Shown one piece after another: positions 2,886 to 59,570 of a DNA stretch of 64,000 nt (the first letter of the stretch is position 1; each line of letters opens with the position of its first letter). Position numbers and translations under genes: made by a program. Origin of the DNA: an uncultured Candidatus Saccharibacteria bacterium (GTDB lineage: Bacteria; Patescibacteriota; Minisyncoccia; Phycocordibacterales; UBA1006). Where the stretch lies: positions 4,947 to 68,946 of the forward strand of contig CAYGJA010000001.1 of the NCBI GenBank assembly GCA_964350165.1, written 5' to 3'. The notes beneath the pieces are model-generated. The model searched no databases. It saw only the letters and a list, made by a program, of their open reading frames with translations, and had not been told where the DNA came from.

Positions 2886-3722
2886 ATGAAGAAAAAACGT
2901 CGACCAACCCAACGACGAAATTTTCCGCTGAAGCTCGTTGTTTTGGGTCTCTTGCTGTTAGTTGGTTTGGGGTCTTGGCTCTATTGGCTCGCCCAAGACA
3001 GTCAATACGTAACAGAATTCAAAATCATAACCCCGGAACCAGAAAATACTGATCTAGTAGAACGCTATGTCGAACAATACCTGGACACTCCACTATGGTT
3101 TGGATTAACCAAGCGAAGACATCGGTCGTTGATTCGCATCGAAAAACTTGAGAAGGAGTTATTGAATCTTTTTCCGCTTTTTTATCAAGCAGACCTCATT
3201 GTTTTTGACCAACAACTTGTTGTAGAACTCCAAACCCGCAAAGCGTACGCGCTCTGGTGCCAAACAATGCCCCAGAACGAAGAACAATGCTGGTTCATTG
3301 ACGAAAATCGCATCATGTACCGCAAGGCGCCACGTTTTTCGGATGGAGTATACGTAAAATACAGCAGTGCTATTCACCAGACTCCCTCTATCGGCGAACA
3401 AATTCTAGACGAAACAGCCAGAGCCTATAGTCGCGACGTGCTTGATGTTTTTGTTAACCAAAACCTCGAACCAACGAGAATTATCTACGAAAGCAAAGAC
3501 CGCGTAGCCATATCGATAGACAAACTTTATGGTTTCAAGGTCCCCGGAGATGCAAAGATTTATGTAAGTACCGAACAATCACTCCAGACCATCGACGAAC
3601 GATTGCAGATACTCATGGCCACCCCGGAATTCAAGGCAGAGGTTACTGCTTCGCCTGGGTTATTTGAATATGCGGACTTGCGCTTCCGGGGGCGTCTGGT
3701 ATACAAACTAAATGATGCTTAA
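2886..3722 (+). CDS. Hypothetical membrane-anchored protein (N-terminal TM, extracytoplasmic domain)
   Basis: 278 aa with a basic N-terminus followed by one hydrophobic helix (LKLVVLGLLLLVGLGSWLYWL). No family recognised. Its 3' end overlaps the dus start by 11 nt. Confidence 0.5.
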   Translation: MKKKRRPTQRRNFPLKLVVLGLLLLVGLGSWLYWLAQDSQYVTEFKIITPEPENTDLVERYVEQYLDTPLWFGLTKRRHRSLIRIEKLEKELLNLFPLFYQADLIVFDQQLVVELQTRKAYALWCQTMPQNEEQCWFIDENRIMYRKAPRFSDGVYVKYSSAIHQTPSIGEQILDETARAYSRDVLDVFVNQNLEPTRIIYESKDRVAISIDKLYGFKVPGDAKIYVSTEQSLQTIDERLQILMATPEFKAEVTASPGLFEYADLRFRGRLVYKLNDA

Positions 3723-6730: not shown

Positions 6731-6816
6731 TCACAATCTTTTCCTTTGTTTTTGTTGCATTGGGGCGGTGATTTGGCTATCATGCAAGGGCGGTTGATTG
6801 TTCCAATCAACTTTTC

Positions 6817-6887
6817 TGCCGGATCGTCTAATGGTAGGACGCCTGGTTTTGGTCCAGGTAATCTAGGTTCGAGCCCTAGTCCGGCAA
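6817..6887 (+). tRNA. tRNA-Gln (anticodon UUG)
   Basis: Hand-folded cloverleaf with acceptor UGCCGGA/UCCGGCA, including the U1-A72 pair typical of tRNA-Gln. Anticodon stem CCUGG/CCAGG with loop UUUUGGU. T-arm CUAGG-UUCGAGC-CCUAG. No encoded CCA. Confidence 0.85.
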
Positions 6888-6890
6888 CAA

Positions 6891-7385
6891 ATGAAATGGA
6901 TTGTAGTTATCTTTCTTATCATAATAATTCTCTTCTTTTTATATACCCAGAAAAAGAAAACTCTAATAGAACCTGAAGAAAAATTTCCCTACAAACTTCA
7001 TCTCAGATTTTTCACCAAAAGTGAGTACGCTTTCTACAAAGAGTTACAAAAACAGGTGGGTGATAAGTACGCTATTTTTTCAAAGGTTCGTCTAGCTGAC
7101 TTCATCGACGTAGATATTGATAAATATAAAAACAGGAGCGAATGGCAAATCTACTGGAACAAGATAAAGTCGAAGCATGTTGATTTTTTGCTTTGTGATC
7201 CGGAGACACTAAAGCCGATGGTTGCTGTTGAATTGAATGGGAAGAGTCATCAGACTGAGAAAGTGAAGGAGCGTGATGAGTTTGTTTCAAGAATGTACGA
7301 GAGCGTCAATCTAAGGTTCGTTACGAATCACGTGGGGGAAGATTTTACAACTACTATTGAGAAAATAATACCGCCTATATCATAG
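6891..7385 (+). CDS. DUF2726-family protein (restriction-endonuclease-like fold) with an N-terminal TM anchor
   Basis: 164 aa with a hydrophobic N-terminus. The core FSKVRLADFIDVD...HVDFLLCDPETLKPMVAVELNGKSH is paralogous to 55711..56217. It starts 4 nt after tRNA-Gln in a very AT-rich segment. Confidence 0.6.
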   Translation: MKWIVVIFLIIIILFFLYTQKKKTLIEPEEKFPYKLHLRFFTKSEYAFYKELQKQVGDKYAIFSKVRLADFIDVDIDKYKNRSEWQIYWNKIKSKHVDFLLCDPETLKPMVAVELNGKSHQTEKVKERDEFVSRMYESVNLRFVTNHVGEDFTTTIEKIIPPIS

Positions 7386-7404: not shown

Positions 7405-7818
7405 GTGCTTGTGGATAAGTTTACAAGTATTTTTGCTAGAATTGTAGGCATGGGTAATATTAAAATTAAATTCTTAACCTTCAAAGATCTAAAAAAACTC
7501 ACTCGATATTTTATCAAATCAACAGAAGCAATAGTGCTCGTATCTGCTTTTCGAGTGATTAACATTTTTATTAAAAGAGGAAATTATGCCAACACAATAG
7601 AAACAGTTAGATTTGATGCGATCTTTTTAAATGTCTTTGTAGACATGGCACTATTAGTGGCCCTTATCTACATCTCTCTCGAGGGATACGAATTTGCCAC
7701 GACATTTACAAGTAAAAAATGGGCAGTACTCTTATTTTGTTTGCTGAGTTTACTATTTTTTGTAGCACTCTATATGTCTCTGACATATCTTGGCTTTATT
7801 GCCGAAATTTTTAAATGA
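7405..7818 (+). CDS. Hypothetical membrane protein
   Basis: 137 aa with two C-terminal hydrophobic helices. AT-rich island gene with no recognisable family. Confidence 0.35.
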   Translation: MLVDKFTSIFARIVGMGNIKIKFLTFKDLKKLTRYFIKSTEAIVLVSAFRVINIFIKRGNYANTIETVRFDAIFLNVFVDMALLVALIYISLEGYEFATTFTSKKWAVLLFCLLSLLFFVALYMSLTYLGFIAEIFK

Positions 7819-8665
7819 AAAATCACAACTTCACCCCAGAGAGCAAGGGCAAAATTTTATAGAAATGGAAGAAGATAAAATAAAAATTAAAGAGGAGAAA
7901 TTTTTAAGAGAGTTAAACTTTTTTAGAAATGAGACGGAAAGCCTGATTAGATATGTTTACAGTAGTGGTGCATTGAATGATGTGATTATAAATAATAAAT
8001 CAGTAAAAAAAGCTGTAAATAAGAATCCTGCATTTTGGAATTCTGTTTTATTTTCATTTACTGATTCAATGTTTATTGTTTTGGGAAGAATATTCGATAT
8101 AGATAATTCTAAGGGAGTAAAAAATACAATACATACACTTTTTAGACAAATAGATGAAAGTAAAGAAATTTTTTCCAAAGTATCATTTTCTAATAGATGG
8201 GCAGCCTCTCATACTCAGATGCTTGATTATAAGGATAAATACATGGAAGGTTTTTATGAAATGAGTAAGGAAGATTGGAAAAAATTTAAAAAAATAAAGT
8301 CTTCCTTAGCTAGGCAATATCAAGAATTTTACAGGCCAATAAGAGATCTTATAGCCCACAGGGTTTTAACTGATAATGGGCAAATTAAAATTGTCATGAA
8401 CAAGGTTCCCGTTAGAGACATGGAGAAATTTTGTACCAAATTAAGAAATCTACATGAAGGACTGTGGCAACTTTATCACAACGGGAGAGGTCCCATTGCT
8501 CCATTAGAAACAGGCAAATATTCAAGTAAAAGCTTCGTAAATACAAAGTACAAACCATATCATCCAGGATCAATTGCATATCAGTATTCACAAGACGCAA
8601 AGAATGCTTTGATTTTATTAGCCAAAGGAAATATGTCTGAAATTCAAAAACATTCAAAATATTAA
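7790..8665 (+). CDS. Hypothetical island protein with a possible HEPN-like Rx4H motif (RDLIAHR); alternative start at 7866
   Basis: 291 aa, low complexity and AT-rich. The only recognisable element is the RDLIAH motif in a predicted helical region. Overlaps the upstream ORF by 29 nt. Confidence 0.4.
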   Translation: MALLPKFLNEKSQLHPREQGQNFIEMEEDKIKIKEEKFLRELNFFRNETESLIRYVYSSGALNDVIINNKSVKKAVNKNPAFWNSVLFSFTDSMFIVLGRIFDIDNSKGVKNTIHTLFRQIDESKEIFSKVSFSNRWAASHTQMLDYKDKYMEGFYEMSKEDWKKFKKIKSSLARQYQEFYRPIRDLIAHRVLTDNGQIKIVMNKVPVRDMEKFCTKLRNLHEGLWQLYHNGRGPIAPLETGKYSSKSFVNTKYKPYHPGSIAYQYSQDAKNALILLAKGNMSEIQKHSKY

Positions 8666-8740
8666 GATGCAAGTATTGAGAATAACCTTGCTGAGTTTGA
8701 TAAAACACGACAATGACGCAAGTTTACCAACTTCACATCC

Positions 8741-8786
8741 TCAAAAAAGTTCCAACTTCGCCCCAGACGGCCAACAAATGCTTTTT
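8741..8786 (+). repeat. Cassette-boundary repeat copy 1 (34-bp core AAAAAGTTCCAACTTCGCCCCAGACGGCCAACAA plus ATGCTTTTT)
   Basis: Core identical to the copies at 9258 and 10241. The 3' extension CAACAAATGCTTTTT is shared with the degenerate copy at 11411 and resembles the tRNA-Gln 3' end and flank (GGCAACAAATG). Confidence 0.8.
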
Positions 8787-8832: not shown

Positions 8833-9261
8833 ATGAACAAATCAGAACATTTCCCAGAAGCTTTTTATAGAGTAAGTGTGCGTGGCATCATGCGTGACGG
8901 TGACAAATTCCTACTCGGACGCCACGGCAACACCTGGGAGACTTTCGGGGGAGGGTTAGATTTTGGAGAAAATTTACATGAAGCCTTGCGAAGAGAAATT
9001 CTAGAAGAAACAGGCTGTCACCTGACATACATATCAGAACAACCGATACTTGCCCTACCACATATTGTTCATGGAAAAAGAGAAATGGACTGGTTTTATA
9101 ACTTCCCAATCTATTACGAAGTTAAATTTGATATTTCTGAATTTGACCTATCTTTACAATATTCAGAATATAGATGGTTCACGGTCAAAGAAATTCAAAA
9201 TCTAAACGTCTTCGAGGGAGAGGAGGGAATAAAAGATGGTTTTGAGTCTCTTTTAAATTAA
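8833..9261 (+). CDS. NUDIX hydrolase
   Basis: 142 aa with the Nudix box GGGLDFGENLHEALRREILEETG. Cassette 1 of the tRNA-Gln island. Confidence 0.75.
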   Translation: MNKSEHFPEAFYRVSVRGIMRDGDKFLLGRHGNTWETFGGGLDFGENLHEALRREILEETGCHLTYISEQPILALPHIVHGKREMDWFYNFPIYYEVKFDISEFDLSLQYSEYRWFTVKEIQNLNVFEGEEGIKDGFESLLN

Positions 9262-9293
9262 AAAGTTCCAACTTCGCCCCAGACGGCCAACAA
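9258..9293 (+). repeat. Cassette-boundary repeat copy 2 (34-bp core)
   Basis: Perfect copy of the core. It overlaps the NUDIX stop codon. Confidence 0.8.
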
Positions 9294-9646: not shown

Positions 9647-10156
9647 TTAAGCCAGCTGGGTGTTAAGCATTCGCTGAAACTCGGCCACCATCGATGGGTC
9701 ATTGTAGACCACAAAGGTGATACTCTCTAAGCTGCTATGTCGCGATAGATGATCCTTAACTCCTTGGACTATCTCACGGAGAGCCTCCTCTCTTGTTTCT
9801 TCAACTGCGCCCAGCATTACACCAGTGCGAATCATGGGAAGGGAAACTGTTCCGGCACCTGCGGTGTTTGCCTGATCGAGGCCAGCCCTTATGACTGTTC
9901 TCAGAGGAGCTTCGAGATCGTCTACCACAAAAATCACATCCTCAAATCCACCATTGTGTGGAGCCGTTTGAGGAGCATACACTGTGGTGCCTTGGGATAA
10001 AGACTTCCCTCTGGCTTGATCATGGAACATAGATCCTGCATTTTGCTGGATAACACGGTCGATGCCTCCAAACCACATACCACTAGAATTGATAGCTGTG
10101 ATCAAGGCGTCGGATTGAATGCGACTAATGTCGCCAGGAATAACGCGTACGTTCAT
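9647..10156 (-). CDS. Macro-domain protein (ADP-ribose / O-acetyl-ADP-ribose processing)
   Basis: 169 aa with the motifs GDISRIQSDALITAINSSG and GGIDRVI. Cassette 2. Confidence 0.75.
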   Translation of the reverse strand: MNVRVIPGDISRIQSDALITAINSSGMWFGGIDRVIQQNAGSMFHDQARGKSLSQGTTVYAPQTAPHNGGFEDVIFVVDDLEAPLRTVIRAGLDQANTAGAGTVSLPMIRTGVMLGAVEETREEALREIVQGVKDHLSRHSSLESITFVVYNDPSMVAEFQRMLNTQLA

Positions 10157-10240: not shown

Positions 10241-10279
10241 TCTCAAAAAAGTTCCAACTTCGCCCCAGACGGCCAACAA
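10241..10279 (+). repeat. Cassette-boundary repeat copy 3 (34-bp core)
   Basis: Perfect copy of the core. Confidence 0.8.
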
Positions 10280-10319: not shown

Positions 10320-11378
10320 ATGATTCAAATTAGCTTTAATAAGGTTACCTGGTATTCAAAACTGCTAGCTATCGTTTTATTTGTGGGAACTTTCTTGCTA
10401 GCCTTTTATCTTGGAAACGAAACCGGAAAACTTAGCAACACTACTAACGATCGCGCATCTGAAGGGGTCAACTCAACTAACCCAACGCAAGAAATTTCTG
10501 TCTCAAAATCCTTGGGCACTCAAACCCAACACGAGCCGATTCCTGGCACAGATAAAAAGATTGCCACAGACATACTCACCAGGGAGGTGTACAATTATCT
10601 TTTTTCTCAGAAATGCTATCTCGAAGATTGTAGTCTGTTTTATTCCGCCATGAGTGATATCACAGAGACAGCAGTTAGCACTATAGACAAAGCACATCTT
10701 GTTGTGGGTGGTAAAAACTATGGATTACTTGTAGCTCCTCCGAATAAAAATGAGTACGAAGAGGACTCCACCAGCCCGGGTCCAGTCGGGCCAGTCAGAT
10801 TAACCTTCGTTGATTACACCAACTCGTCAGAACCTTTTGTGGCTCAAACTTTATACCTTGAAGGGCTTATGGCTTGGGCTAGAAATGATTATGAATATTA
10901 TGCGAGTATTTCTATAGACGGAAAATATCCAAACAACGGATTTCTTTCGGGAGATGCATTTTATTTTGGCAACGCTCCATATAATTGCGTCACGCTTTGT
11001 GGCAACAGAATGGATATCTGGTATAGAGTTCTTTTTGACAAGGGCCTACAAAAGTTTATTGCCCAAAAACCGAATTACACACAGCTTGAGTCTATTTTGA
11101 ATAAAAAAAACATCACCATTGATTGGAAAAAAGAACATGGTATATATCTGGGTGGTTTTGAAATCTTTACAACCACAGACCCTCTCACTTTTCTTGCCAT
11201 AAAATATGACGAAGAGACTTTAACCCCAGAATACATTGTTTCTTTCGAAATACTTGAGAAGAATGAATCAGATTATCGATATGAGTGGAACGGTTTAGAT
11301 TCTGATTTCATCCAAAATATCAAATTAATCTACAACATAGATTCAAGCTTAACGCTAGAGGATGTTGTCGGAAACTAA
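10320..11378 (+). CDS. Hypothetical secreted or membrane-anchored protein
   Basis: 352 aa with an N-terminal signal anchor (LLAIVLFVGTFLLAFYLG), an S/T-rich linker, and an aromatic-rich domain. Cassette 3. Confidence 0.5.
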   Translation: MIQISFNKVTWYSKLLAIVLFVGTFLLAFYLGNETGKLSNTTNDRASEGVNSTNPTQEISVSKSLGTQTQHEPIPGTDKKIATDILTREVYNYLFSQKCYLEDCSLFYSAMSDITETAVSTIDKAHLVVGGKNYGLLVAPPNKNEYEEDSTSPGPVGPVRLTFVDYTNSSEPFVAQTLYLEGLMAWARNDYEYYASISIDGKYPNNGFLSGDAFYFGNAPYNCVTLCGNRMDIWYRVLFDKGLQKFIAQKPNYTQLESILNKKNITIDWKKEHGIYLGGFEIFTTTDPLTFLAIKYDEETLTPEYIVSFEILEKNESDYRYEWNGLDSDFIQNIKLIYNIDSSLTLEDVVGN

Positions 11379-11410
11379 GCTAGAAATTTGATACATCCAA
11401 ATGCATCGAG

Positions 11411-11450
11411 AAAGTCCCAACATCGTCATGGGCGGCCAACAAATGCTTTT
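11411..11450 (+). repeat. Degenerate fourth copy of the cassette-boundary repeat
   Basis: GAAAGTCCCAACATCGTCATGGGCGGCCAACAAATGCTTTTT shares AAAGT.CCAAC and GGCCAACAAATGCTTTTT with copy 1. Confidence 0.6.
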
Positions 11451-11478
11451 TTGGTAGGTGTTTTTTGTAAAAGAAAAG

Positions 11479-13429: not shown

Positions 13430-14113
13430 ATGACTTTCATGAATACCGTATTAACACCCAAACAAAAAGAAGTTCTCGACCTGATTGTTAATTTTTCTAG
13501 AAAAAATAATGCGACTACGCCTACTTTGGATTGGTTACGTCAAGAAATTGGTTGCAAATCAATCAACAGCGTTGTTAAACATCTAAAAGCCCTGGAAACA
13601 AAAGGCGTCATTGCTCGTCGCAAACACGCCAAAGAAAACAACATTGTCATCTTGGAACAAAAAAGCATAAGGGGCCCTCAGATGATATCGGTGCCAGTTA
13701 TTGCTTCGGTTGGTTGTGATAATATGAGCGTCTTTGCCCAAGAAAACACTGACGAATATCTAACAGTAGACGCTAGCCTGATCGGCAAAAAACGCCTCGT
13801 GGCCATTCGAGCCGAGGGCGACAGCATGAATGATGCTGGCGTAGAAAACGGAGATTATGCCCTGGTAGAGATTCTCGAGAATGGCGAACCAATCAAAAAT
13901 GGCGAAATCGTAACGGCCATCATTGACGGTATGGCAGTACTCAAAAGATACGAAAAAAAAGACGGTGTAGTTATCTTGTACCCACAATCCCGAAACCCTC
14001 AACACAAACCTATCGTTGTTAATCAATCCTTCCGAATTATAGGTCGACTATGGCAAATGATCCCAGGGTTTGCCGAGGATGATTTTACCTTTGTCCCCGA
14101 GCCTAGTTTTTAA
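13430..14113 (+). CDS. lexA: LexA repressor (wHTH + S24 peptidase)
   Basis: 227 aa. The N-terminal wHTH is TPKQKEVLDLI...LKALETKGVIAR. The C-terminus has a Ser-Lys dyad (AEGDSMNDAG; MAVLKRYEKKDG). Confidence 0.85.
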   Translation: MTFMNTVLTPKQKEVLDLIVNFSRKNNATTPTLDWLRQEIGCKSINSVVKHLKALETKGVIARRKHAKENNIVILEQKSIRGPQMISVPVIASVGCDNMSVFAQENTDEYLTVDASLIGKKRLVAIRAEGDSMNDAGVENGDYALVEILENGEPIKNGEIVTAIIDGMAVLKRYEKKDGVVILYPQSRNPQHKPIVVNQSFRIIGRLWQMIPGFAEDDFTFVPEPSF

Positions 14114-14124
14114 GAAAAATTCAA

Positions 14125-14457
14125 ATGAGCATCTCGAATGAATTTATTGATTATGTTACAGAACTCCTAGAACCGGTCGGCCCAGTATCTGTTTCCCGAA
14201 TGTTCGGCGGTGCCTTGATCAAAGTAAGAAATATTCAGCTTGGTATCATTATTGATGACCGTCTTTTTTTCAAAATTACCGACAAATTAATCCAGGGAAA
14301 ATACCAAACCCAGGGCTCAGAGCAGTTCTCTTATCTAAGAAAAGACAAAAAAGAACCAATTATTATCAAAAATTGGTGGTCCGTACCCACAGCTGCGCTT
14401 GATGACAGTGACCTATTGGTAGAACTAGCCGAAGAAGCACTCAACCAAGAGAGCTAA
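14125..14457 (+). CDS. TfoX/Sxy N-terminal-domain protein
   Basis: 110 aa carrying VSRMFGGALIKVRNIQLGIIIDDRLFFK, which is TfoX_N-like. Sits 12 nt downstream of lexA. Confidence 0.55.
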   Translation: MSISNEFIDYVTELLEPVGPVSVSRMFGGALIKVRNIQLGIIIDDRLFFKITDKLIQGKYQTQGSEQFSYLRKDKKEPIIIKNWWSVPTAALDDSDLLVELAEEALNQES

Positions 14458-52351: not shown

Positions 52352-53671
52352 ATGAACTCAAAAAACATGAAAAGCATCATAAAAAACATAATCGTATACA
52401 TCATCACCTGGCAAGCAAAAATGATTGTCAAAAAATACCATCCCCAAATCATTGCTATTGGCGGAGACGTGGGCAAAACCACGACCAAAGACGCTATTTA
52501 CGAAGTAGTCAAGCAGAAATTCACAACCAGAAAAAGCCAGAAGAGCTTTAATAGCGAGACCGGCTTGCCCCTCTCAATCATTGGTGCGGACAGTGGCTGG
52601 AACAGTCCACGTAAATGGCTGGGGGTTATTATGCGTGGTTTCGAGCTTTTGATAAAAAAACAAAAATACCCCGACTATCTTGTGCTCGAACTTGGAGACA
52701 GAAAGCCGGGCGACAGCAAGACCCTCACCGAATGGCTACAGCCAGACATTCTCGTGCTTACCAAAATAGACGAAATACCAACCCATGTGGAATTTTTTGA
52801 ATCAATCAAAGCTTCTCGATCAGAAAAAACAGATCTCGTGCGTGCCGTCAAAAAAGAAGGCATTGTCATTATTAATCACGATGACCCCCTGGCTCTCGAG
52901 GTAATAGAGAATTCTCGTCGGCAAGATATTAACGTTCTCCAATTTTCTGAAACAGAAAAAAATACTGATTTGTTTATCAAACAAATATCTATTATCAAAA
53001 AAGAAGATCTTCTCGGAACTCGTATTTCTTTGGTGCACCAAGACCAAGACGCTGTAATTTTTGTCGCTGGCCAACTGGGTGACGGTCTAGCCAAATCAGT
53101 GGCCACCGCCGCCTTGGTTGGGCTGGCTCTCGATATTTCATTAGAAACGTCCGCGTATGCTTTTGCAGAGGAGACAGATCTGGCCCGAGGTAGATTGCGA
53201 GCCATACCAGGAGTAAAAAGAACCGTCCTAATTGACGACACCTACAATGCAGGTTTTGCTTCTACAAAACTCGCCCTAGAGACACTATCTCAGACACCCA
53301 AGGCAAATCGGCGCATAGCCCTCTTGGCAGATATGCTAGAACTAGGAAAGCACAGCCAAGAAGCCCACGAAGCCATTGGCGCCCTCGCTCCCGAGCATTG
53401 CGACATCCTTATCACCGTCGGAGCACATTCTCGATCAATCGCCACAGCCGCAAAAAATGCCGGCATGAAAACAAAAGAAGTTTTCACTTTTTCAAATGCT
53501 GGCGAAGCAGGAAAATTTGCCGAGCAAATGATTTCTCCTGGTGACGTAGTCCTCATAAAAGGCTCCCAGGGCTTGCGTATGGAACGCGCTGTCCAAGAAA
53601 TGATGCTCCACCCCGAAGAAAGAGACAAGCTGCTTGTTCGCCAAGAAAGAGAATGGTTGTCAAAAAAATAG
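52352..53671 (+). CDS. murF: Mur ligase, most likely UDP-MurNAc-tripeptide D-Ala-D-Ala ligase
   Basis: 439 aa with GGDVGKTTTKDAI (the Mur ligase P-loop) and IDDTYNAGF (compare the MurF motif DDSYNANP). Its dcw position follows ftsI. MurE cannot be excluded. Confidence 0.55.
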   Translation: MNSKNMKSIIKNIIVYIITWQAKMIVKKYHPQIIAIGGDVGKTTTKDAIYEVVKQKFTTRKSQKSFNSETGLPLSIIGADSGWNSPRKWLGVIMRGFELLIKKQKYPDYLVLELGDRKPGDSKTLTEWLQPDILVLTKIDEIPTHVEFFESIKASRSEKTDLVRAVKKEGIVIINHDDPLALEVIENSRRQDINVLQFSETEKNTDLFIKQISIIKKEDLLGTRISLVHQDQDAVIFVAGQLGDGLAKSVATAALVGLALDISLETSAYAFAEETDLARGRLRAIPGVKRTVLIDDTYNAGFASTKLALETLSQTPKANRRIALLADMLELGKHSQEAHEAIGALAPEHCDILITVGAHSRSIATAAKNAGMKTKEVFTFSNAGEAGKFAEQMISPGDVVLIKGSQGLRMERAVQEMMLHPEERDKLLVRQEREWLSKK

Positions 53672-54398: not shown

Positions 54399-54470
54399 GG
54401 CCCTATCGTCTAACGGTTAGGACGCCAGGTTCTCATCCTGGAAATCGGAGTTCGATTCTCCGTAGGGTCA
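54399..54470 (+). tRNA. tRNA-Glu (anticodon CUC)
   Basis: Acceptor GGCCCUA/UAGGGUC. Anticodon stem CCAGG/CCUGG with loop UUCUCAU. T-arm CGGAG-UUCGAUU-CUCCG. No encoded CCA. Confidence 0.85.
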
Positions 54471-54550
54471 CATCATCTAAAAGCCTTCTGCAACAACACT
54501 CTTTGAAGTGGGATTGTGGGGTATTCAGAACTGAATACTTGACATTTAAT
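54460..54550 (+). repeat. attB-like site: tRNA-Glu 3' end (CCGTAGGGTCAC) plus a downstream flank duplicated at 58314
   Basis: The 26 nt CCGTAGGGTCACATCATCTAAAAGCC are identical at 58314..58339. The next roughly 65 nt are about 75% identical. Confidence 0.75.
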
Positions 54551-54637
54551 CTAAAAAATGGTATTATACTTTTGATTAATTCTTTTTAAATTCACCCGTA
54601 CGAAAACGAAATCCCTGGTACGGGCAGGGTAAAAAAC

Positions 54638-55411
54638 ATGAAAATTACTAATCACAGCGGCGCATGGGCCGCAGAGATTGAGATTTTGGAAGGGCCCATG
54701 TCGGCCCTGTGTCTGGAGATTGGCATTTTTTGCCGCAACCGCCAGCGCGCACGTCGGACCTTCACCATCGGCCAAGCCTTGGCCTCTGGCAAGTACCCAG
54801 AAGGACTTGCCGAGGTTGAGACCTGGCTCGAGAAGACGGCCGGCTCAGCCGAGCTCAAGCACAAGGTGCTTGCAGCGGTCGCAGTGGCCATCTTGCGGAC
54901 GGAGGTATCCACCTATGACTGGTTCCTAATGGCAGAAATTGTTGGCCAAGAGAAACCTTTTGGAAAAGAGTTCGAGGAAGGATACCGAGTCGAGGTGCCA
55001 CAGCGTCTCCTCCCCTCAAGCTGGACTGGCGAAGCCAAGTTTGGCAATTTGGAGGCTGCCGTGGCCTACGCCAATGACCAGGCGGACAATTTGGAGGCCT
55101 TGGAAATTGTCCACGAGGACAAATGGGGGAACCGCACCCCGATCGCCCTTGTGAAGCCTGCAAGCATACTGTGCTTGCATGGCGAAGTTCACTACCTGGC
55201 CAAACGTCTGTCTTTCGATCTCGAAACGATCGAAAGGTGGGTGGTACGCCATTGGGGATTAAAAGAGGGGTTCGAAACCCACCTTGAGGACTTGGAAGAC
55301 CTAAAAGCTGAGATTTGGAGCTACTCCAGACTCACAGCCCATTGGGGCATGAGAGTGTGCCCAGCCCTAGGCTGGGATACAGACTGGCAACCGCAAGAAG
55401 AGGAGCTTTAG
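54638..55411 (+). CDS. Hypothetical protein encoded by a conspicuously GC-rich ORF
   Basis: 257 aa. Its codon usage is rich in GCC/CGC/GGC, unlike the neighbouring genes. No recognisable domain. It is the first cassette after tRNA-Glu. Confidence 0.5.
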   Translation: MKITNHSGAWAAEIEILEGPMSALCLEIGIFCRNRQRARRTFTIGQALASGKYPEGLAEVETWLEKTAGSAELKHKVLAAVAVAILRTEVSTYDWFLMAEIVGQEKPFGKEFEEGYRVEVPQRLLPSSWTGEAKFGNLEAAVAYANDQADNLEALEIVHEDKWGNRTPIALVKPASILCLHGEVHYLAKRLSFDLETIERWVVRHWGLKEGFETHLEDLEDLKAEIWSYSRLTAHWGMRVCPALGWDTDWQPQEEEL

Positions 55412-55528
55412 GCTCACTATCTAATAAGAAAAAGGGTCGGATGACATCAGTTGTCCGACCGCTTTTTATTTGGGGAATTTAGATGCTCGCCGCCAAATTT
55501 CTGGTGGCTTTTTTAATCTCACTCCGCA

Positions 55529-55690
55529 CCCCCAAAAGTTCTGAAAACCAAGCCGTAGGGTCACTAGAATTTAAAGTGTTGTAAATAAAGGGTTTTAGAG
55601 GGTGTCCTAGGGGGTGTTCCGAATTCTTGGTGAACATGTTTTCAAAAGATAGTTTTTGGTGGGTTATAATTGTTTTATACAAATTCACGT
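55529..55690 (+). repeat. Island repeat copy A (full): tRNA-like arm, core CCGTAGGGTCAC, and a roughly 130-bp conserved arm ending in TTATAATTGTTTTATACAAATTCACG
   Basis: About 95% identical to copy D (58908..59068). Core at 55553..55564. The arm ends about 20 nt before the DUF2726 ATG. Confidence 0.8.
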
Positions 55691-55710: not shown

Positions 55711-56217
55711 ATGACAAATCTCACCATTCTCATCATCGTCGGCGTTGGATTTGCCGCTATTGTTTACTTCTTTGGCAAGAAAGAACCCTCTGAGGGAAAA
55801 ACCAAGGAAGAATATCACTACCAACCAAAGAAGTTCTTTATGACGCGCGCCGAGCATGAATGCTTTGATGCTTTGGTCGAGGCAGTGGGGGATCAGTATC
55901 ATGTTCTAGCCCAAGTACATCTGAATTCAATTGTGGACCACAAAGTGACGGGTCAAAACTGGAAAGCAGCATTTCGGCACATCAGCCAAAAATCTGTCGA
56001 CTTTGTGCTCTGTGACAAGGATTACCTATCTCCAAAACTAGCGATAGAGCTTGATGACAAAACACACGAAAGACCTGATCGGATGTTGCGTGATGCTGAG
56101 GTGGAGAGAATCCTAAAAGATGCCAAGGTTCCTTTGCTCAGATTGGAAAACCATGGGAGCTTTGATGTGGGAGAGATAAAGGAAAAGATTCAAGGTTCTC
56201 TCGTAGTAATAGGGTAA
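55711..56217 (+). CDS. DUF2726-family protein with an N-terminal TM anchor (paralogue of 6891..7385)
   Basis: The ATG at 55711 gives MTNLTILIIVGVGFAAIVYFF. The core is SVDFVLCDKDYLSPKLAIELDDKTH. The track ORF 55627 starts inside the repeat. Confidence 0.6.
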   Translation: MTNLTILIIVGVGFAAIVYFFGKKEPSEGKTKEEYHYQPKKFFMTRAEHECFDALVEAVGDQYHVLAQVHLNSIVDHKVTGQNWKAAFRHISQKSVDFVLCDKDYLSPKLAIELDDKTHERPDRMLRDAEVERILKDAKVPLLRLENHGSFDVGEIKEKIQGSLVVIG

Positions 56218-56290: not shown

Positions 56291-57190
56291 ATGAAACGTT
56301 GGAAAACAATTCCAAAAAATCGAAAGCTGGCTCTACTGGCTGTAGGGTTGCTTGTACTTGCCATGGTTGGTTGTGTTTCAAAGAGATCGATCAGCTCTAT
56401 TGCCACGAACAACACTGATGCGATGCCTGAAAACCCTCTTACCGGGTTGGATTATGTACCACCGTCTATTGATGGAGTTTCCTATGGCGACTATCTTGAT
56501 TCGATTCCTGATGGTTCCATGTATATTGGCTCAAGCCGGGGTCCGATTGGCATAGACGCTAGTTTTGTGGGTGGTGATACTGAAATTTTTCAACGAGATC
56601 GATTTTTGGCTCAAAACGAGACATATAATTATTATTCTCCTTATAATATTGGCACATCGTATCAAGGTGTGACTGGCCAGGGAGAATACACCGCCCATAC
56701 CGCTAAGATTAGATTGGAGTATAACGGAGTGGAGGTTTGGTCGGGAGAACGGTACAAGCTTTACGAATTATTCACAGATTCACCTAAAAAGGGGTTCTTG
56801 GTATCACTAGGATGGATATCTGAGTCCGAGATTCTCTTCAATGTAAAAAGTGATGGCTGGGGTCAGAGTTTAGAAATGTGGATACTTGATGTCTCTAACA
56901 TGGCTACTCGTAAGCTGAATTTGCCCGAAAACTATGTTTCGGTGCCATATTTGTCGCCTAATGGTAAATATGTAATGTTCGGCATCAAGACTTCACCTGA
57001 AGGTGATGCAGATTGGGTTGATGAATGGTTCTTGTATGAAATACAAACCAACAAGATTACTCCGTTACCACCAGGCTCATATGGGGCCTGGTATCTTCCT
57101 GTCGATACGTACAACAAAATCGAAGAAGCATTGCAAGCCTCGATGGGATCAGGGTTTTTACACCCAAAAGTTCGGAAAACCAAGCCGTAG
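56291..57190 (+). CDS. Hypothetical lipoprotein, beta-propeller-like
   Basis: 299 aa with a lipobox (LLVLAMVGC) and a Y/G/D-rich beta-rich domain. The last 9 codons and the stop are encoded by repeat copy B. Confidence 0.5.
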   Translation: MKRWKTIPKNRKLALLAVGLLVLAMVGCVSKRSISSIATNNTDAMPENPLTGLDYVPPSIDGVSYGDYLDSIPDGSMYIGSSRGPIGIDASFVGGDTEIFQRDRFLAQNETYNYYSPYNIGTSYQGVTGQGEYTAHTAKIRLEYNGVEVWSGERYKLYELFTDSPKKGFLVSLGWISESEILFNVKSDGWGQSLEMWILDVSNMATRKLNLPENYVSVPYLSPNGKYVMFGIKTSPEGDADWVDEWFLYEIQTNKITPLPPGSYGAWYLPVDTYNKIEEALQASMGSGFLHPKVRKTKP

Positions 57191-57270
57191 GGTCACTAGA
57201 ATTTAAAGTGTTGTAAATAAAGGGGTTTTTGGGGGTGTCCTAGGGGGTGTTCCGAATTATTTGTGAACGT
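57163..57270 (+). repeat. Island repeat copy B (arm truncated)
   Basis: Core at 57185..57196, followed by TAGAATTTAAAGTGTTGTAAATAAAGGGG...GTGTTCCGAATT, after which the similarity is lost. Confidence 0.75.
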
Positions 57271-57322
57271 GTGAAGATTGTGGAAGATATGTAAAACAGC
57301 CAGCAAACAAAGAGTCAGATTC

Positions 57323-58312
57323 TCAAATCTCTTTATTTCGCATTCTCACTAATTCAGTCTCTTGTATAGAATCGCCTTGGTCACCAAAAAATAAACTTTC
57401 AAGCACGGACCAGAGATAGAGCGAGGATGAGATAACAATTATCCAATGGGCTTGTAATATATAAGTTTCTACAGCAAAAACCCCAACTCCCACTAAGAGC
57501 GCAAGAAGAAGGTGAATAGTTTTTGCATCCTCTCTCACATACTCGATCCCTTTGCGTCCACGATTCTCGGTGTGAAGAAATGCCAAAGCCAAAATCTGCA
57601 AGGAAGATATGACAACGGGAACAATATAGGCACCCTCTCTTGTTTCATAAGCAATAACACCCGTACCAATAGCCGATGCGACGAGCGACAGATACACAAA
57701 CATTTTTATTGCGCTGAATTGGAAGGGGGTTGGTTTTTTTGAGGTAAAAGCAAAGAAAAGCCCGCACGCTAATCCAAAAAATACGAACGGGGGTAAGAGA
57801 TTAAAAAGTCCACCATCATTCCATATTTCTAAAATAAGACTCAAAACCTCTCCCCGTAAAGGTGTTAGCCCCAACAAGAGTATCCATATTAGTGAGAGTA
57901 AAAAAACGGTCGATTCAGTGATTTTGGGCAAAAATCCTAATTTCTTTGCAAGCCCTTGCATGTAAAAGTGACTGTTGTCCCCAATACGACGTGTTTTATT
58001 GGGATAGTAATGCATCCAAGGCGCAACGATTCCTAAAAGCAACCCACCAAAATAAACAGCAAAACGTACTCCAAGTCCAACCCCTAGCTCTTGCAATTGA
58101 GTTGCCATGTAATACATACCGAAACTCAAGGTAACCAAGATGGCCACACCAATACCGCGCTTAATACGCAACCCTTTCTGACGGTCTTTTCTCATGAATC
58201 TAGTATATCGCAACCAGTGAGACTCAAGAATACTTAAATGATGAACTCTTATTTTACCCAATTTTCTAACGTAACAATAAGGCTTTTGATACCCAAAAGT
58301 TCGGAAAACCAA
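57323..58312 (-). CDS. Hypothetical polytopic membrane protein (about 8 TM); true start probably internal
   Basis: 329 aa. The N-terminal 15 residues (MVFRTFG...) are just the reverse complement of repeat copy C with a TTG start. The likely real start is a downstream ATG. Confidence 0.45.
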   Translation of the reverse strand: MVFRTFGYQKPYCYVRKLGKIRVHHLSILESHWLRYTRFMRKDRQKGLRIKRGIGVAILVTLSFGMYYMATQLQELGVGLGVRFAVYFGGLLLGIVAPWMHYYPNKTRRIGDNSHFYMQGLAKKLGFLPKITESTVFLLSLIWILLLGLTPLRGEVLSLILEIWNDGGLFNLLPPFVFFGLACGLFFAFTSKKPTPFQFSAIKMFVYLSLVASAIGTGVIAYETREGAYIVPVVISSLQILALAFLHTENRGRKGIEYVREDAKTIHLLLALLVGVGVFAVETYILQAHWIIVISSSLYLWSVLESLFFGDQGDSIQETELVRMRNKEI

Positions 58313-58400
58313 GCCGTAGGGTCACATCATCTAAAAGCCCTGTATAGCAACACCTTGTGAAGTGGAGTTATGGGGTTTTCAGAACTACTTATATTGACTT
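58256..58400 (+). repeat. Island repeat copy C (hybrid): repeat-type left arm, core, then tRNA-Glu-type right flank
   Basis: ACCCAATTTTCTAACGTAACAATAAG...CCCAAAAGTTCGGAAAACCAAG + CCGTAGGGTCAC (58314..58325) + ATCATCTAAAAGCC... This is a P-O-B'-like junction. Confidence 0.75.
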
Positions 58401-58810: not shown

Positions 58811-58907
58811 ACTGACTGTCAAAGCCGCCCTTTAGGAAGGCGGCTTCTTTTTGCATACTTTCTCTAAAACACCAGATCGGATACTGCTTTTCTAATGTCA
58901 CCCCTCA

Positions 58908-59068
58908 ACCCCAAAAGTTCCGAAATTCAAGCTATTGGCTCACTAGAATTTAAAGTGTTGTAAATAAAGGGTTTTAGAGGGTGCCCTAGGGGGTGTTCCG
59001 AATTCTTAGCGAAGATGTTTTCAAAAGATAGTTTTTGGTGAGTTATAATTGTTTTATACAAATTCACG
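58908..59068 (+). repeat. Island repeat copy D (full arm, degenerate core CTATTGGCTCAC)
   Basis: The arm is about 95% identical to copy A. It ends 10 nt before the ATG at 59078. Confidence 0.75.
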
Positions 59069-59077
59069 TAAAATCTT

Positions 59078-59416
59078 ATGGAATCACTACCAAGCACAGA
59101 TAACAGCTATAAGGGACACATAGAAAGACTAAAAGCCGAATTGGCTCTTGCCACAAATCCAACAGATGTACTACGGATTATTGCAGAGGGTATCAGCATG
59201 GTTGATAAGATCGAAGACCTTTTGCTTTCTGTTGAATTACAAAAAGTTAAACCCGCGTACGAAACAGAAAACCTAACGACTCTAGACAAAGCTAGAACCA
59301 TGGCCATGTCTTTAGATTTGTTTCCAAAGATAGCGGGAGCAATGGCGCGCGTGATAATCTCTGACTTGAAAAAAAGATTTATTGGAGATATTCCGGAAGA
59401 AACTCTAGAAAAGTAA
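59078..59416 (+). CDS. Hypothetical helical protein
   Basis: 112 aa with no recognisable motif. It lies directly downstream of repeat arm D. Confidence 0.4.
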   Translation: MESLPSTDNSYKGHIERLKAELALATNPTDVLRIIAEGISMVDKIEDLLLSVELQKVKPAYETENLTTLDKARTMAMSLDLFPKIAGAMARVIISDLKKRFIGDIPEETLEK

Positions 59417-59478
59417 CTCGTCTTTATTCTGACTATCTACCAGAGAAATGAAATCTTTTCCTGTTATATTTTCATTCA

Positions 59479-59570
59479 ACCCAATTTTCTAACGTAACAA
59501 TAAGAATTTTGGTCCCGAAAAGTTCGGAAAACCTAGCCGTAGGGTCACTAGAATTTAAAGTGTTGTAAAA
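59479..59570 (+). repeat. Island repeat copy E (left arm plus core, right arm truncated)
   Basis: CCCAATTTTCTAACGTAACAATAAG...AAAAGTTCGGAAAACCTAG + CCGTAGGGTCAC (59536..59547) + TAGAATTTAAAGTGTTGTAAAAAACCC. Confidence 0.7.

Follow-up and report, generated by a model that had tools for sequence, protein, structure and literature searches.

Two transfer RNA (tRNA) genes in a 64,000-nucleotide stretch of DNA from an uncultured Candidatus Saccharibacteria bacterium (contig CAYGJA010000001.1, positions 4,947 to 68,946; hereafter the window) are each followed by an array of short gene units, and each array holds one gene of the DUF2726 family, DUF2726-1 behind tRNA-Gln (island 1) and DUF2726-2 downstream of tRNA-Glu (island 2). 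Does the predicted nuclease belong to the machinery that builds such arrays, or is it carried by them? Our analysis favors the second answer, to which we assign a probability of about 0.55: the two genes are independently acquired mobile island cargo encoding membrane-tethered, Vsr-like nucleases, probably defence-related, rather than array-building machinery. Cargo is preferred to machinery because sister arrays lack DUF2726, because its place within arrays varies and because its adjacency to tRNA genes is rare.

Both proteins are ordinary members of DUF2726, a known large family. Protein 1 (164 residues; 6891-7385, plus strand) and protein 2 (168 residues; 55711-56217, plus strand), the latter from a very conserved subfamily (subfamily 2) of the Candidate Phyla Radiation (CPR), match the Pfam profile DUF2726/PF10881 with E-values of 3.8e-30 and 1.5e-29, respectively. 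The scores of 104.7 and 102.7 bits, about 100 bits for both, lie above the Pfam gathering cut-off of 24.7, and weak secondary Pfam matches of both proteins are to DUF559 and the MTES_1575 restriction endonuclease. Each N-terminus consists of a hydrophobic segment devoid of charge followed by Lys-rich sequence, and the structure model places a helix at residues 2-22. Under a strict criterion, an equivalent N-terminus is present in 25 of 33 and 23 of 28 relatives in the two sets compared. The positive-inside rule, on which this prediction solely relies, places the nuclease domain probably in the cytoplasm.

The structure model is confident (pLDDT 92.8) and adopts a PD-(D/E)xK fold of the Vsr/DUF559/I-Bth0305I type, with a homing endonuclease as its best structural match and many other PD-(D/E)xK enzymes as further matches. 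E45, D98, F99 and E114 do not vary in the alignment, and K65, V66, R67, D70, K95, H96, H120, D129 and F131 are conserved in at least 90% of the sequences. Subfamily 2 is stricter, with 55 invariant columns in 28 sequences, including the positions matching D98, E114, H120 and D129. The two proteins have the pattern D...E-x-D/N-x3-H...D in common, in which protein 1 carries N where D is expected (ELNGKSH). The set of conserved acidic and His residues appears intact, and both proteins are predicted to be nucleases. The original prediction is therefore borne out as to family membership, the membrane helix followed by a positively charged stretch, the common core motifs and the restriction-endonuclease-like fold. 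DUF2726 has been classed as a Vsr-like restriction endonuclease fold, linked with mobile elements and found fused to Abi N-terminal domains (PMC3424549, PMC3710099). In a search of PADLOC-DB 2.0 (E up to 0.01), neither protein matched any described or candidate system; the NCBIfam search gave no match, the PHROGs search gave the unannotated family phrog_14167 as the sole match, and a PDB sequence search with the family profile returned nothing relevant.

The two proteins had been regarded as paralogues that form the first cargo of both islands. Paralogy in any close sense is contradicted by their relatives. The two proteins are 30% identical to each other over 158 aligned residues, whereas relatives of protein 1 in other genomes reach 53-63% identity, and those of protein 2 number more than 1,124, are of uniform length and in many cases are 55-72% identical, with one at 94%. 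The two genes belong to different subfamilies and must have been acquired separately, as argued by the contrast between their 30% mutual identity and their 61% and 72-94% identity to proteins in other genomes, and further by a GC content of 0.323 in the first unit of island 1 versus 0.43 in the window. A third argument for separate acquisition comes from the locus L109 (handles of the form L001 denote the loci collected for comparison), which encodes a DUF2726 protein 72% identical to protein 2, yet its adjoining MurF is only 36% identical to that of the window (MurF, 297-1607 vs 52352-53671; DUF2726, 3124-3690 vs 55711-56217), and the order MurF, tRNA-Glu(ctc), one variable gene and DUF2726 is common to both. 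The gap in identity would be explained by a recent horizontal transfer into the same tRNA site or by an unusually strong constraint.

Position was the ground for linking the nuclease to the arrays. At tRNA-Gln the predicted adjacency is confirmed, since the ATG of DUF2726-1 at 6891 lies 2-3 nt beyond the end of the tRNA gene, at the edge of the core GGC(C)AACAA(ATG). By comparison, the copy at tRNA-Glu is second in its island, behind a 257-residue open reading frame (ORF) at 54638-55411, so that a place as first cargo holds for the former and not for the latter. Sister relatives of the tRNA-Gln locus were retrieved through DnaX, without reference to DUF2726. L197, in which DnaX is 92% identical and the syntenic 6.7 kb are 80% identical at the DNA level, has no DUF2726 gene at this locus; its tRNA-Gln runs straight into AACAAATGCTTTTTTTGTAGGTGTT, which in the window is found behind the terminal repeat ending at 11442, and about 400 nt later comes a perfect copy of the cassette repeat, after which the region leads to LexA. 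This comparison indicates that island 1 is a 4.55-kb insertion that varies between strains, lies between the tRNA and an attR-like site and includes DUF2726 in its variable content. The window contig and L197 derive from the neighboring run accessions ERR3534981 and ERR3534989, possibly from one project, which hints at population-level variation. In L200-L204 (DnaX 75% identical), tRNA-Gln is followed by a 389-residue ORF, an APH-type kinase and a repeat with two mismatches, again with no DUF2726 in the array. GGC(C)AACAA is common to all junctions, with ATG next in four of the seven (window 6884-6893 and 11434-11460; L197 11316-11345 and 11727-11765), so that the DUF2726-1 ATG falls at the margin of the recombination core.

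Is a tRNA-proximal position a property of the family? We surveyed 80 species-representative genome loci related to protein 1, chosen from at least 588 matches and covering Planctomycetota, Chloroflexota, Patescibacteria, Proteobacteria and others, together with 80 metagenome loci of subfamily 2. Among those with enough upstream sequence, a same-strand tRNA lies within 500 nt upstream in 3 of 74 genome loci and 1 of 63 metagenome loci (4 of 137 in total), and within 2 kb upstream in 2 of 64 and 4 of 46, respectively. A CPR genome carries an estimated one tRNA per 20-30 kb or so, by which the 2-kb figures are near chance; the 500-nt figures amount to no more than a few-fold excess, which any island cargo would be expected to show. 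The tRNA-adjacent cases are mostly from the CPR. L007 is syntenic with the window (DnaX, tRNA-Gln, a pseudo-3' end and, 2 nt later, the DUF2726 ATG); in L006, tRNA-Trp is followed by DUF2726 and then by single-gene units separated by tRNA-like repeats; in L135, tRNA-Ser lies 47 nt upstream of the gene. In L196, a DUF817 unit intervenes between tRNA-Gln and DUF2726, and in L109 and L150, as in the window, one variable gene separates tRNA-Glu(ctc) from DUF2726. L001 holds two DUF2726 copies as ordinary internal units, and in L090-L093 the gene lies 7.8 kb from tRNA-Gln(ctg), behind Gabija. DUF2726 thus comes first in the arrays of island 1, L006 and L007 and is internal or distal in L001 (twice), L090, L196 and island 2; first place in about 3 of 8 arrays of 4-8 genes each is not compelling. 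The original prediction named, as evidence that would speak against it, a lack of positional association with tRNAs or repeat arrays together with a lack of conserved catalytic residues; on the positional side tRNA adjacency is indeed rare, but on the catalytic side the putative active-site residues are conserved.

The neighborhoods of relatives are those of a mobile, defence-island-associated gene. One relative directly precedes a type I restriction-modification system with an embedded Shedu-like (SduA_C) gene, in an element with a serine recombinase and Rep, and another has an Eco57I-type methylase and an SNF2-PLD protein on one side and an IS3 transposase on the other. Gabija (GajA and GajB) precedes DUF2726 in L090-L093, and AbiJ_NTD4 is found with Gabija. 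PIN_8 follows DUF2726 in L086, near tRNA-Ala and tRNA-Pro, and in L088, near an inserted serine-recombinase and Rep element. In L085, DUF2726 is followed by a DUF4145 (HEPN) gene. Outside the source genome, protein 1 has its two closest relatives in L085 and L195 (59-61% identity). Both of these loci carry, in place of the tRNA and about 20-40 nt upstream, a divergent gene for an XRE-type helix-turn-helix (HTH) protein (L085 1-225, seen by eye; L195 640-846, by Pfam), an arrangement reminiscent of the controller genes seen in restriction or toxin modules. Viral contigs rarely contain the family, with 20 weak matches. A conserved pair of DUF2726 and AbiU2, the third gene of the first unit of island 1, was considered and rejected, as the gene that follows DUF2726 in L007 is unrelated to AbiU2 and a census of 124 immediate neighbors of subfamily 2 gave no dominant family.

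Further observations concern the genes around relatives. The commonest immediate neighbor of subfamily 2 is a TspO/MBR membrane protein (L096 7551-8051, L086 10670-11140 and five other loci). A large serine recombinase lies near DUF2726 in three CPR-type loci (L082 1-2163, L088 4709-7269 and L094 1-12), and those of L082 and L088 are paired with Rep-like genes (REP_ORF2-G2P or Viral_Rep); these may be small integrative replicons for which the same sites serve as hotspots.

Could the nuclease itself be the enzyme of these integrase-less arrays, a homing-type or site-specific endonuclease whose cut at tRNA 3' ends or repeats drives cassette capture or excision, possibly in trans? The setting invites the idea, as no integrase is seen in or beside either island, both window arrays carry a DUF2726 copy, in the window, L006 and L007 the gene comes first behind a tRNA or pseudo-tRNA end, its start codon in island 1 abuts the recombination core, and a homing endonuclease is the best structural match. 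CPR loci of subfamily 1, that of protein 1, also co-occur with the conserved repeat motif, but this co-occurrence is confounded, the loci having been fetched through DUF2726. Against the idea, sister arrays with the same tRNA and repeat do without the gene, 133 of 137 family loci with at least 500 nt of upstream sequence (about 97%) have no same-strand tRNA within that distance, the gene takes variable places in arrays and forms two ordinary units in L001, and a membrane anchor would be odd for a chromosomal recombinase. Action in trans would explain the sister arrays without a local copy, and even so we regard the account as very improbable. The same holds for its bolder form, in which the nuclease would supply the missing catalytic activity of a new tRNA-anchored cassette-capture system by cutting the core that bears its own start codon, as the leading cassette on the tRNA promoter; we give this hardly any credence. 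The array-tied or cassette-processing role put forward in the original prediction is thus not sustained by the rare tRNA adjacency, the varying place in arrays and the sister arrays that lack the gene.

Two other explanations fare somewhat better. DUF2726 may act as part of an abortive-infection or toxin-antitoxin-like module of several genes, together with its immediate neighbors and not as a stand-alone nuclease; in the window these neighbors are a 137-residue membrane ORF and the AbiU2 HEPN protein. The three genes are tightly spaced or overlapping in one low-GC unit, relatives are followed by RNase-type genes (DUF4145 in L085, PIN_8 in L086 and L088), and the divergent XRE-type HTH genes of L085 and L195 lie directly upstream. 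Such a module is nevertheless unlikely when the partner changes in every lineage, the follower in L007 shows no relationship to AbiU2, the companion of DUF2726-2 is a lipoprotein-like ORF and the census of 124 neighbors lacks a dominant family. A cellular DNA-handling enzyme of the CPR, acting in processing during competence uptake or in Vsr-like repair and merely lying in variable regions, would fit the very strong conservation of subfamily 2 between lineages that have a MurF identity of just 36%, the more than 1,124 relatives of uniform length, the rarity of the family in viral contigs (20 weak matches), and the presence of DprA and a pilin-like protein in the window. We consider it quite unlikely, as DUF2726 is missing from the syntenic locus of close relatives, its neighborhoods are variable and rich in mobile genes, the GC content of unit 1 is foreign, and one genome holds two divergent copies.

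The interpretation as mobile, defence-related cargo has several points against it as well. The assignment to defence derives solely from gene neighborhood, and the neighbors of subfamily 2 include no constant partner (TspO, 7; Phage_integrase, 4; ResIII, 4; AAA_21, 4; SNase, 3; SMC_N, 3; DpnI, 2; AAA_15, 2). Apart from the DnaX set, in which only two independent lineages are represented, the loci had been gathered by way of DUF2726 itself. The conservation of subfamily 2, with its 55 invariant columns and twice the identity of the neighboring MurF, is unusual for a defence gene and keeps a cellular DNA-handling role alive as a rival. In addition, PADLOC and NCBIfam offer no match, and the searchable literature yielded no functional study of, or experiment on, any DUF2726 protein. 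As to the defence or abortive-infection effector that the original prediction had proposed, this function is the most plausible one given the restriction-modification, Shedu, Gabija, PIN_8, AbiU2 and DUF4145 neighbors, but it is unproven.

If the two genes are independently acquired cargo, small mobile units would have built up at the 3' ends of tRNA-Gln and tRNA-Glu through site-specific recombination, and the closeness of the nucleases to tRNAs would be due to the construction of the islands and not to nuclease function. Each protein of about 165 residues comprises one predicted N-terminal membrane helix and a Vsr-like PD-(D/E)xK endonuclease domain, probably on the cytoplasmic side, and would cut foreign DNA during entry or serve as an effector with variable neighbors, while the membrane tether would keep the nuclease off the chromosome. 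Copy 1 would be expressed with tRNA-Gln, and copy 2 from a promoter-like sequence within the repeat ahead of it. Action against incoming DNA may be proposed from the parallel with SNIPE, a GIY-YIG nuclease anchored in the membrane by a single pass, which cuts phage DNA as it is injected and becomes toxic when untethered (PMC13190303). The two proteins resemble SNIPE in their predicted short outside N-terminus, single membrane helix and cytoplasmic nuclease, and the idea that a tether protects the chromosome may apply to both. They differ from it in being Vsr-like and not GIY-YIG nucleases, in lacking the DUF4041 domain that binds DNA and tape-measure protein, and in being about one third of its size; Pfam found neither DUF4041 nor GIY-YIG in them. 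They also differ from homing endonucleases of the I-Bth0305I type, as the DUF2726 gene lies outside any intron or intein, the protein is membrane-anchored and there is no evidence of a target site.

Both islands are real arrays of 0.5-1.9 kb units, mostly of a single gene, separated by direct repeats that mimic the tRNA 3' end. Island 1 spans from the 3' end of tRNA-Gln to 11442, with all of its features on the plus strand except where stated, and is bordered at one end by genes for DprA, SerRS, Dus and DnaX and at the opposite end by that for LexA. The tRNA-Gln(ttg) gene (6817-6888; ARAGORN, Rfam 61.1 bits) encodes no CCA, and its 3' end forms the attL-like left boundary. The first unit has a low GC content and consists of DUF2726-1, the hydrophobic or membrane ORF of 137 residues (7405-7818 in the ORF list; a gene call of 135 residues on the public contig), which has no match in Pfam, PADLOC, PHROG or NCBIfam, and the final AbiU2-type HEPN protein of 291 residues (7790-8665; Pfam HEPN_AbiU2, E = 1.2e-12), with tight spacing and overlap. 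After the first copy of the cassette repeat, AGTTCCAACTTCGCCCCAGACGGCCAACAA (8740-8777), come a NUDIX cassette (8833-9261; Pfam E = 1.6e-12, with a weak match to PADLOC PDC-S07), repeat copy 2 (9256-9293), a Macro-domain cassette on the minus strand, inverted relative to the repeats (9647-10156; Pfam Macro, E = 4.5e-5), repeat copy 3 (10242-10279), and a cassette ORF of 352 residues with no assigned function (10320-11378). A degenerate, attR-like terminal repeat (11405-11442) closes the island, and the sequence 3' of it matches the post-tRNA sequence of L197. AGTTCCAACTTCGCCCCAGACGGCCAACAA resembles the 3' end of tRNA-Gln; its motif gives three matches in the window versus none expected, and the tRNA-Gln-like repeats of the island number four. 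The spacing of 2-3 nt between the tRNA and the ATG leaves no room for a promoter or Shine-Dalgarno sequence, so that co-transcription is the natural inference, and DUF2726-1 is probably transcribed together with tRNA-Gln. Upstream of the tRNA gene, a TTGCAT-17-TATCAT element was noted by eye at 6753-6781.

Island 2, all of whose features lie on the plus strand, has MurF ahead of it and genes for a SurA-like protein, a response regulator and a pilin-like protein behind it. The core of its repeats, CCGTAGGGTCAC, consists of the final 12 nt of tRNA-Glu(ctc) (54399-54471; ARAGORN, Rfam) and is present five times, at 54460, 55553, 57185, 58314 and 59537, with a degenerate copy within 58886-59069. 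The cores sit in repeats of 90-180 nt that have one common left arm and two kinds of right arm. The true first gene, the ORF of 257 residues at 54638-55411, has no assigned function and a unit GC content of 0.51. It is followed by a repeat at 55507-55690 (core 55553-55564), which contains the promoter-like element TTCAAA-18-TATAAT at 55641-55670, just upstream of DUF2726-2. The unit of DUF2726-2 also holds an ORF of 299 residues (56291-57190) with an N-terminus that looks lipoprotein-like by eye and with no family match. Further repeats lie at 57122-57272 (core 57185-57196), at 58251-58386 (core 58314-58325; right arm resembling the post-tRNA sequence), at 58886-59069 (degenerate core; 91% identical to 55507-55690) and at 59474-59567 (core 59537-59548; the last copy detected). 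The promoter-like site recurs at 59020-59049, before the ORF at 59078, and the repeats of island 2 may supply promoters to downstream cassette genes. In the post-tRNA-Glu sequence itself, 54539-54567 is a near-consensus extended -10 promoter, TTGACA-17-TATTAT. Neither L109 nor L150 contains a sequence match to the repeat of island 2, and the duplicated tRNA core is also not seen there, so that the tRNA-Glu layout of the three genomes is not attributable to the same repeats.

The boundary motif of island 1 extends beyond this lineage. With at most three mismatches and in the same orientation as the tRNA, AGTTCCAACNTCGNCCCANANNGCC (about 30 nt) recurs in CPR loci of different genomes, namely in the window at 8740-8777, 9256-9293, 10242-10279 and 11405-11442 and in L001, L006, L007, L082, L085, L090-L093, L196, L197, L200 and L202. 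It is found near different tRNAs (Gln-ttg, Gln-ctg and Trp) and was not found in the 166 other loci fetched. Neither Phage_integrase nor Resolvase was detected among the 30 island and flanking ORFs scanned; an integrase may lie elsewhere in the genome. AGTTCCAACNTCGNCCCANANNGCC has the look of a recombination site belonging to an undescribed cassette system, integron-like but integrase-less, with tRNA genes as its anchors. The motif in viral contigs was dropped from consideration, since its 18 single matches there are about what a rough estimate gives by chance for 16 specified bases.

Known systems share parts of this organization. The pattern of a tRNA-site island is present, with direct repeats of the tRNA 3' end and an intact tRNA on one side, and L197 defines the empty-site flank. 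Tycheposons are reportedly tandem integrative elements at tRNA sites; like them, the islands have cargo units beside a tRNA gene, partial repeats of the tRNA 3' end in between and an occupancy that varies among close strains. Unlike tycheposons, the island units are mostly single genes of 0.5-1.9 kb, no integrase is seen in or near the arrays, and the repeat motif is conserved across CPR genomes and near different tRNAs. Integron arrays likewise consist of short, mostly single-gene units with a recurring site and an anchoring site whose upstream promoter is able to express the first unit. In the window, by contrast, the anchor is a tRNA gene, and no IntI lies beside the arrays among the scanned ORFs. 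Hairpins like those of integron attC sites were sought and rejected, as the repeats fold no better than shuffled sequences (z-scores of -1.6 to +1.0).

Repeats of other kinds were also observed. An automated search, which misses degenerate repeats, found flanking direct repeats in 8 of 176 loci. In L086, a perfect 180-nt direct repeat (7813-7992 and 13990-14169) brackets a 6-kb segment that starts with DUF2726 and PIN_8 and lies downstream of tRNA-Ala, tRNA-Pro and a pseudo-tRNA 3' end at 7018-7043. A single DUF2726 gene stands between 48-nt direct repeats in L152 (5917-5964 and 6595-6642) and between 26-nt palindromic hairpin repeats in L048 (5932-5957 and 6564-6589), which suggests single-gene mobile units or REP-like flanks outside the window lineage. 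Elsewhere in the window, two repeat pairs (26603-26680/27835-27912, 78 nt, 85%; 23421-23469/26666-26714, 49 nt, 82%) consist of a terminator-like hairpin plus downstream sequence and flank a minus-strand NUDIX gene and small ORFs, possibly a further small unit that is duplicated or mobile.

The DUF2726 family is very large and has no assigned function; one subfamily alone has more than 1,100 close relatives, and matches came from each collection searched. The combination of an N-terminal membrane helix common among the sampled relatives, a Vsr-like active-site pattern and a habitat in defence and mobile islands provides a testable hypothesis, that of a minimal membrane-tethered nuclease which, like SNIPE, would guard DNA entry. 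The tempting link between DUF2726 and the mechanism of the arrays is removed as unsupported. The two genes are new members of a known, uncharacterised family, and the array system is the more unusual feature of this DNA. With single-gene units at tRNAs, no integrase seen, strain-variable occupancy and a motif common across CPR genomes, the arrays are the more interesting lead for understanding gene flow in the CPR.

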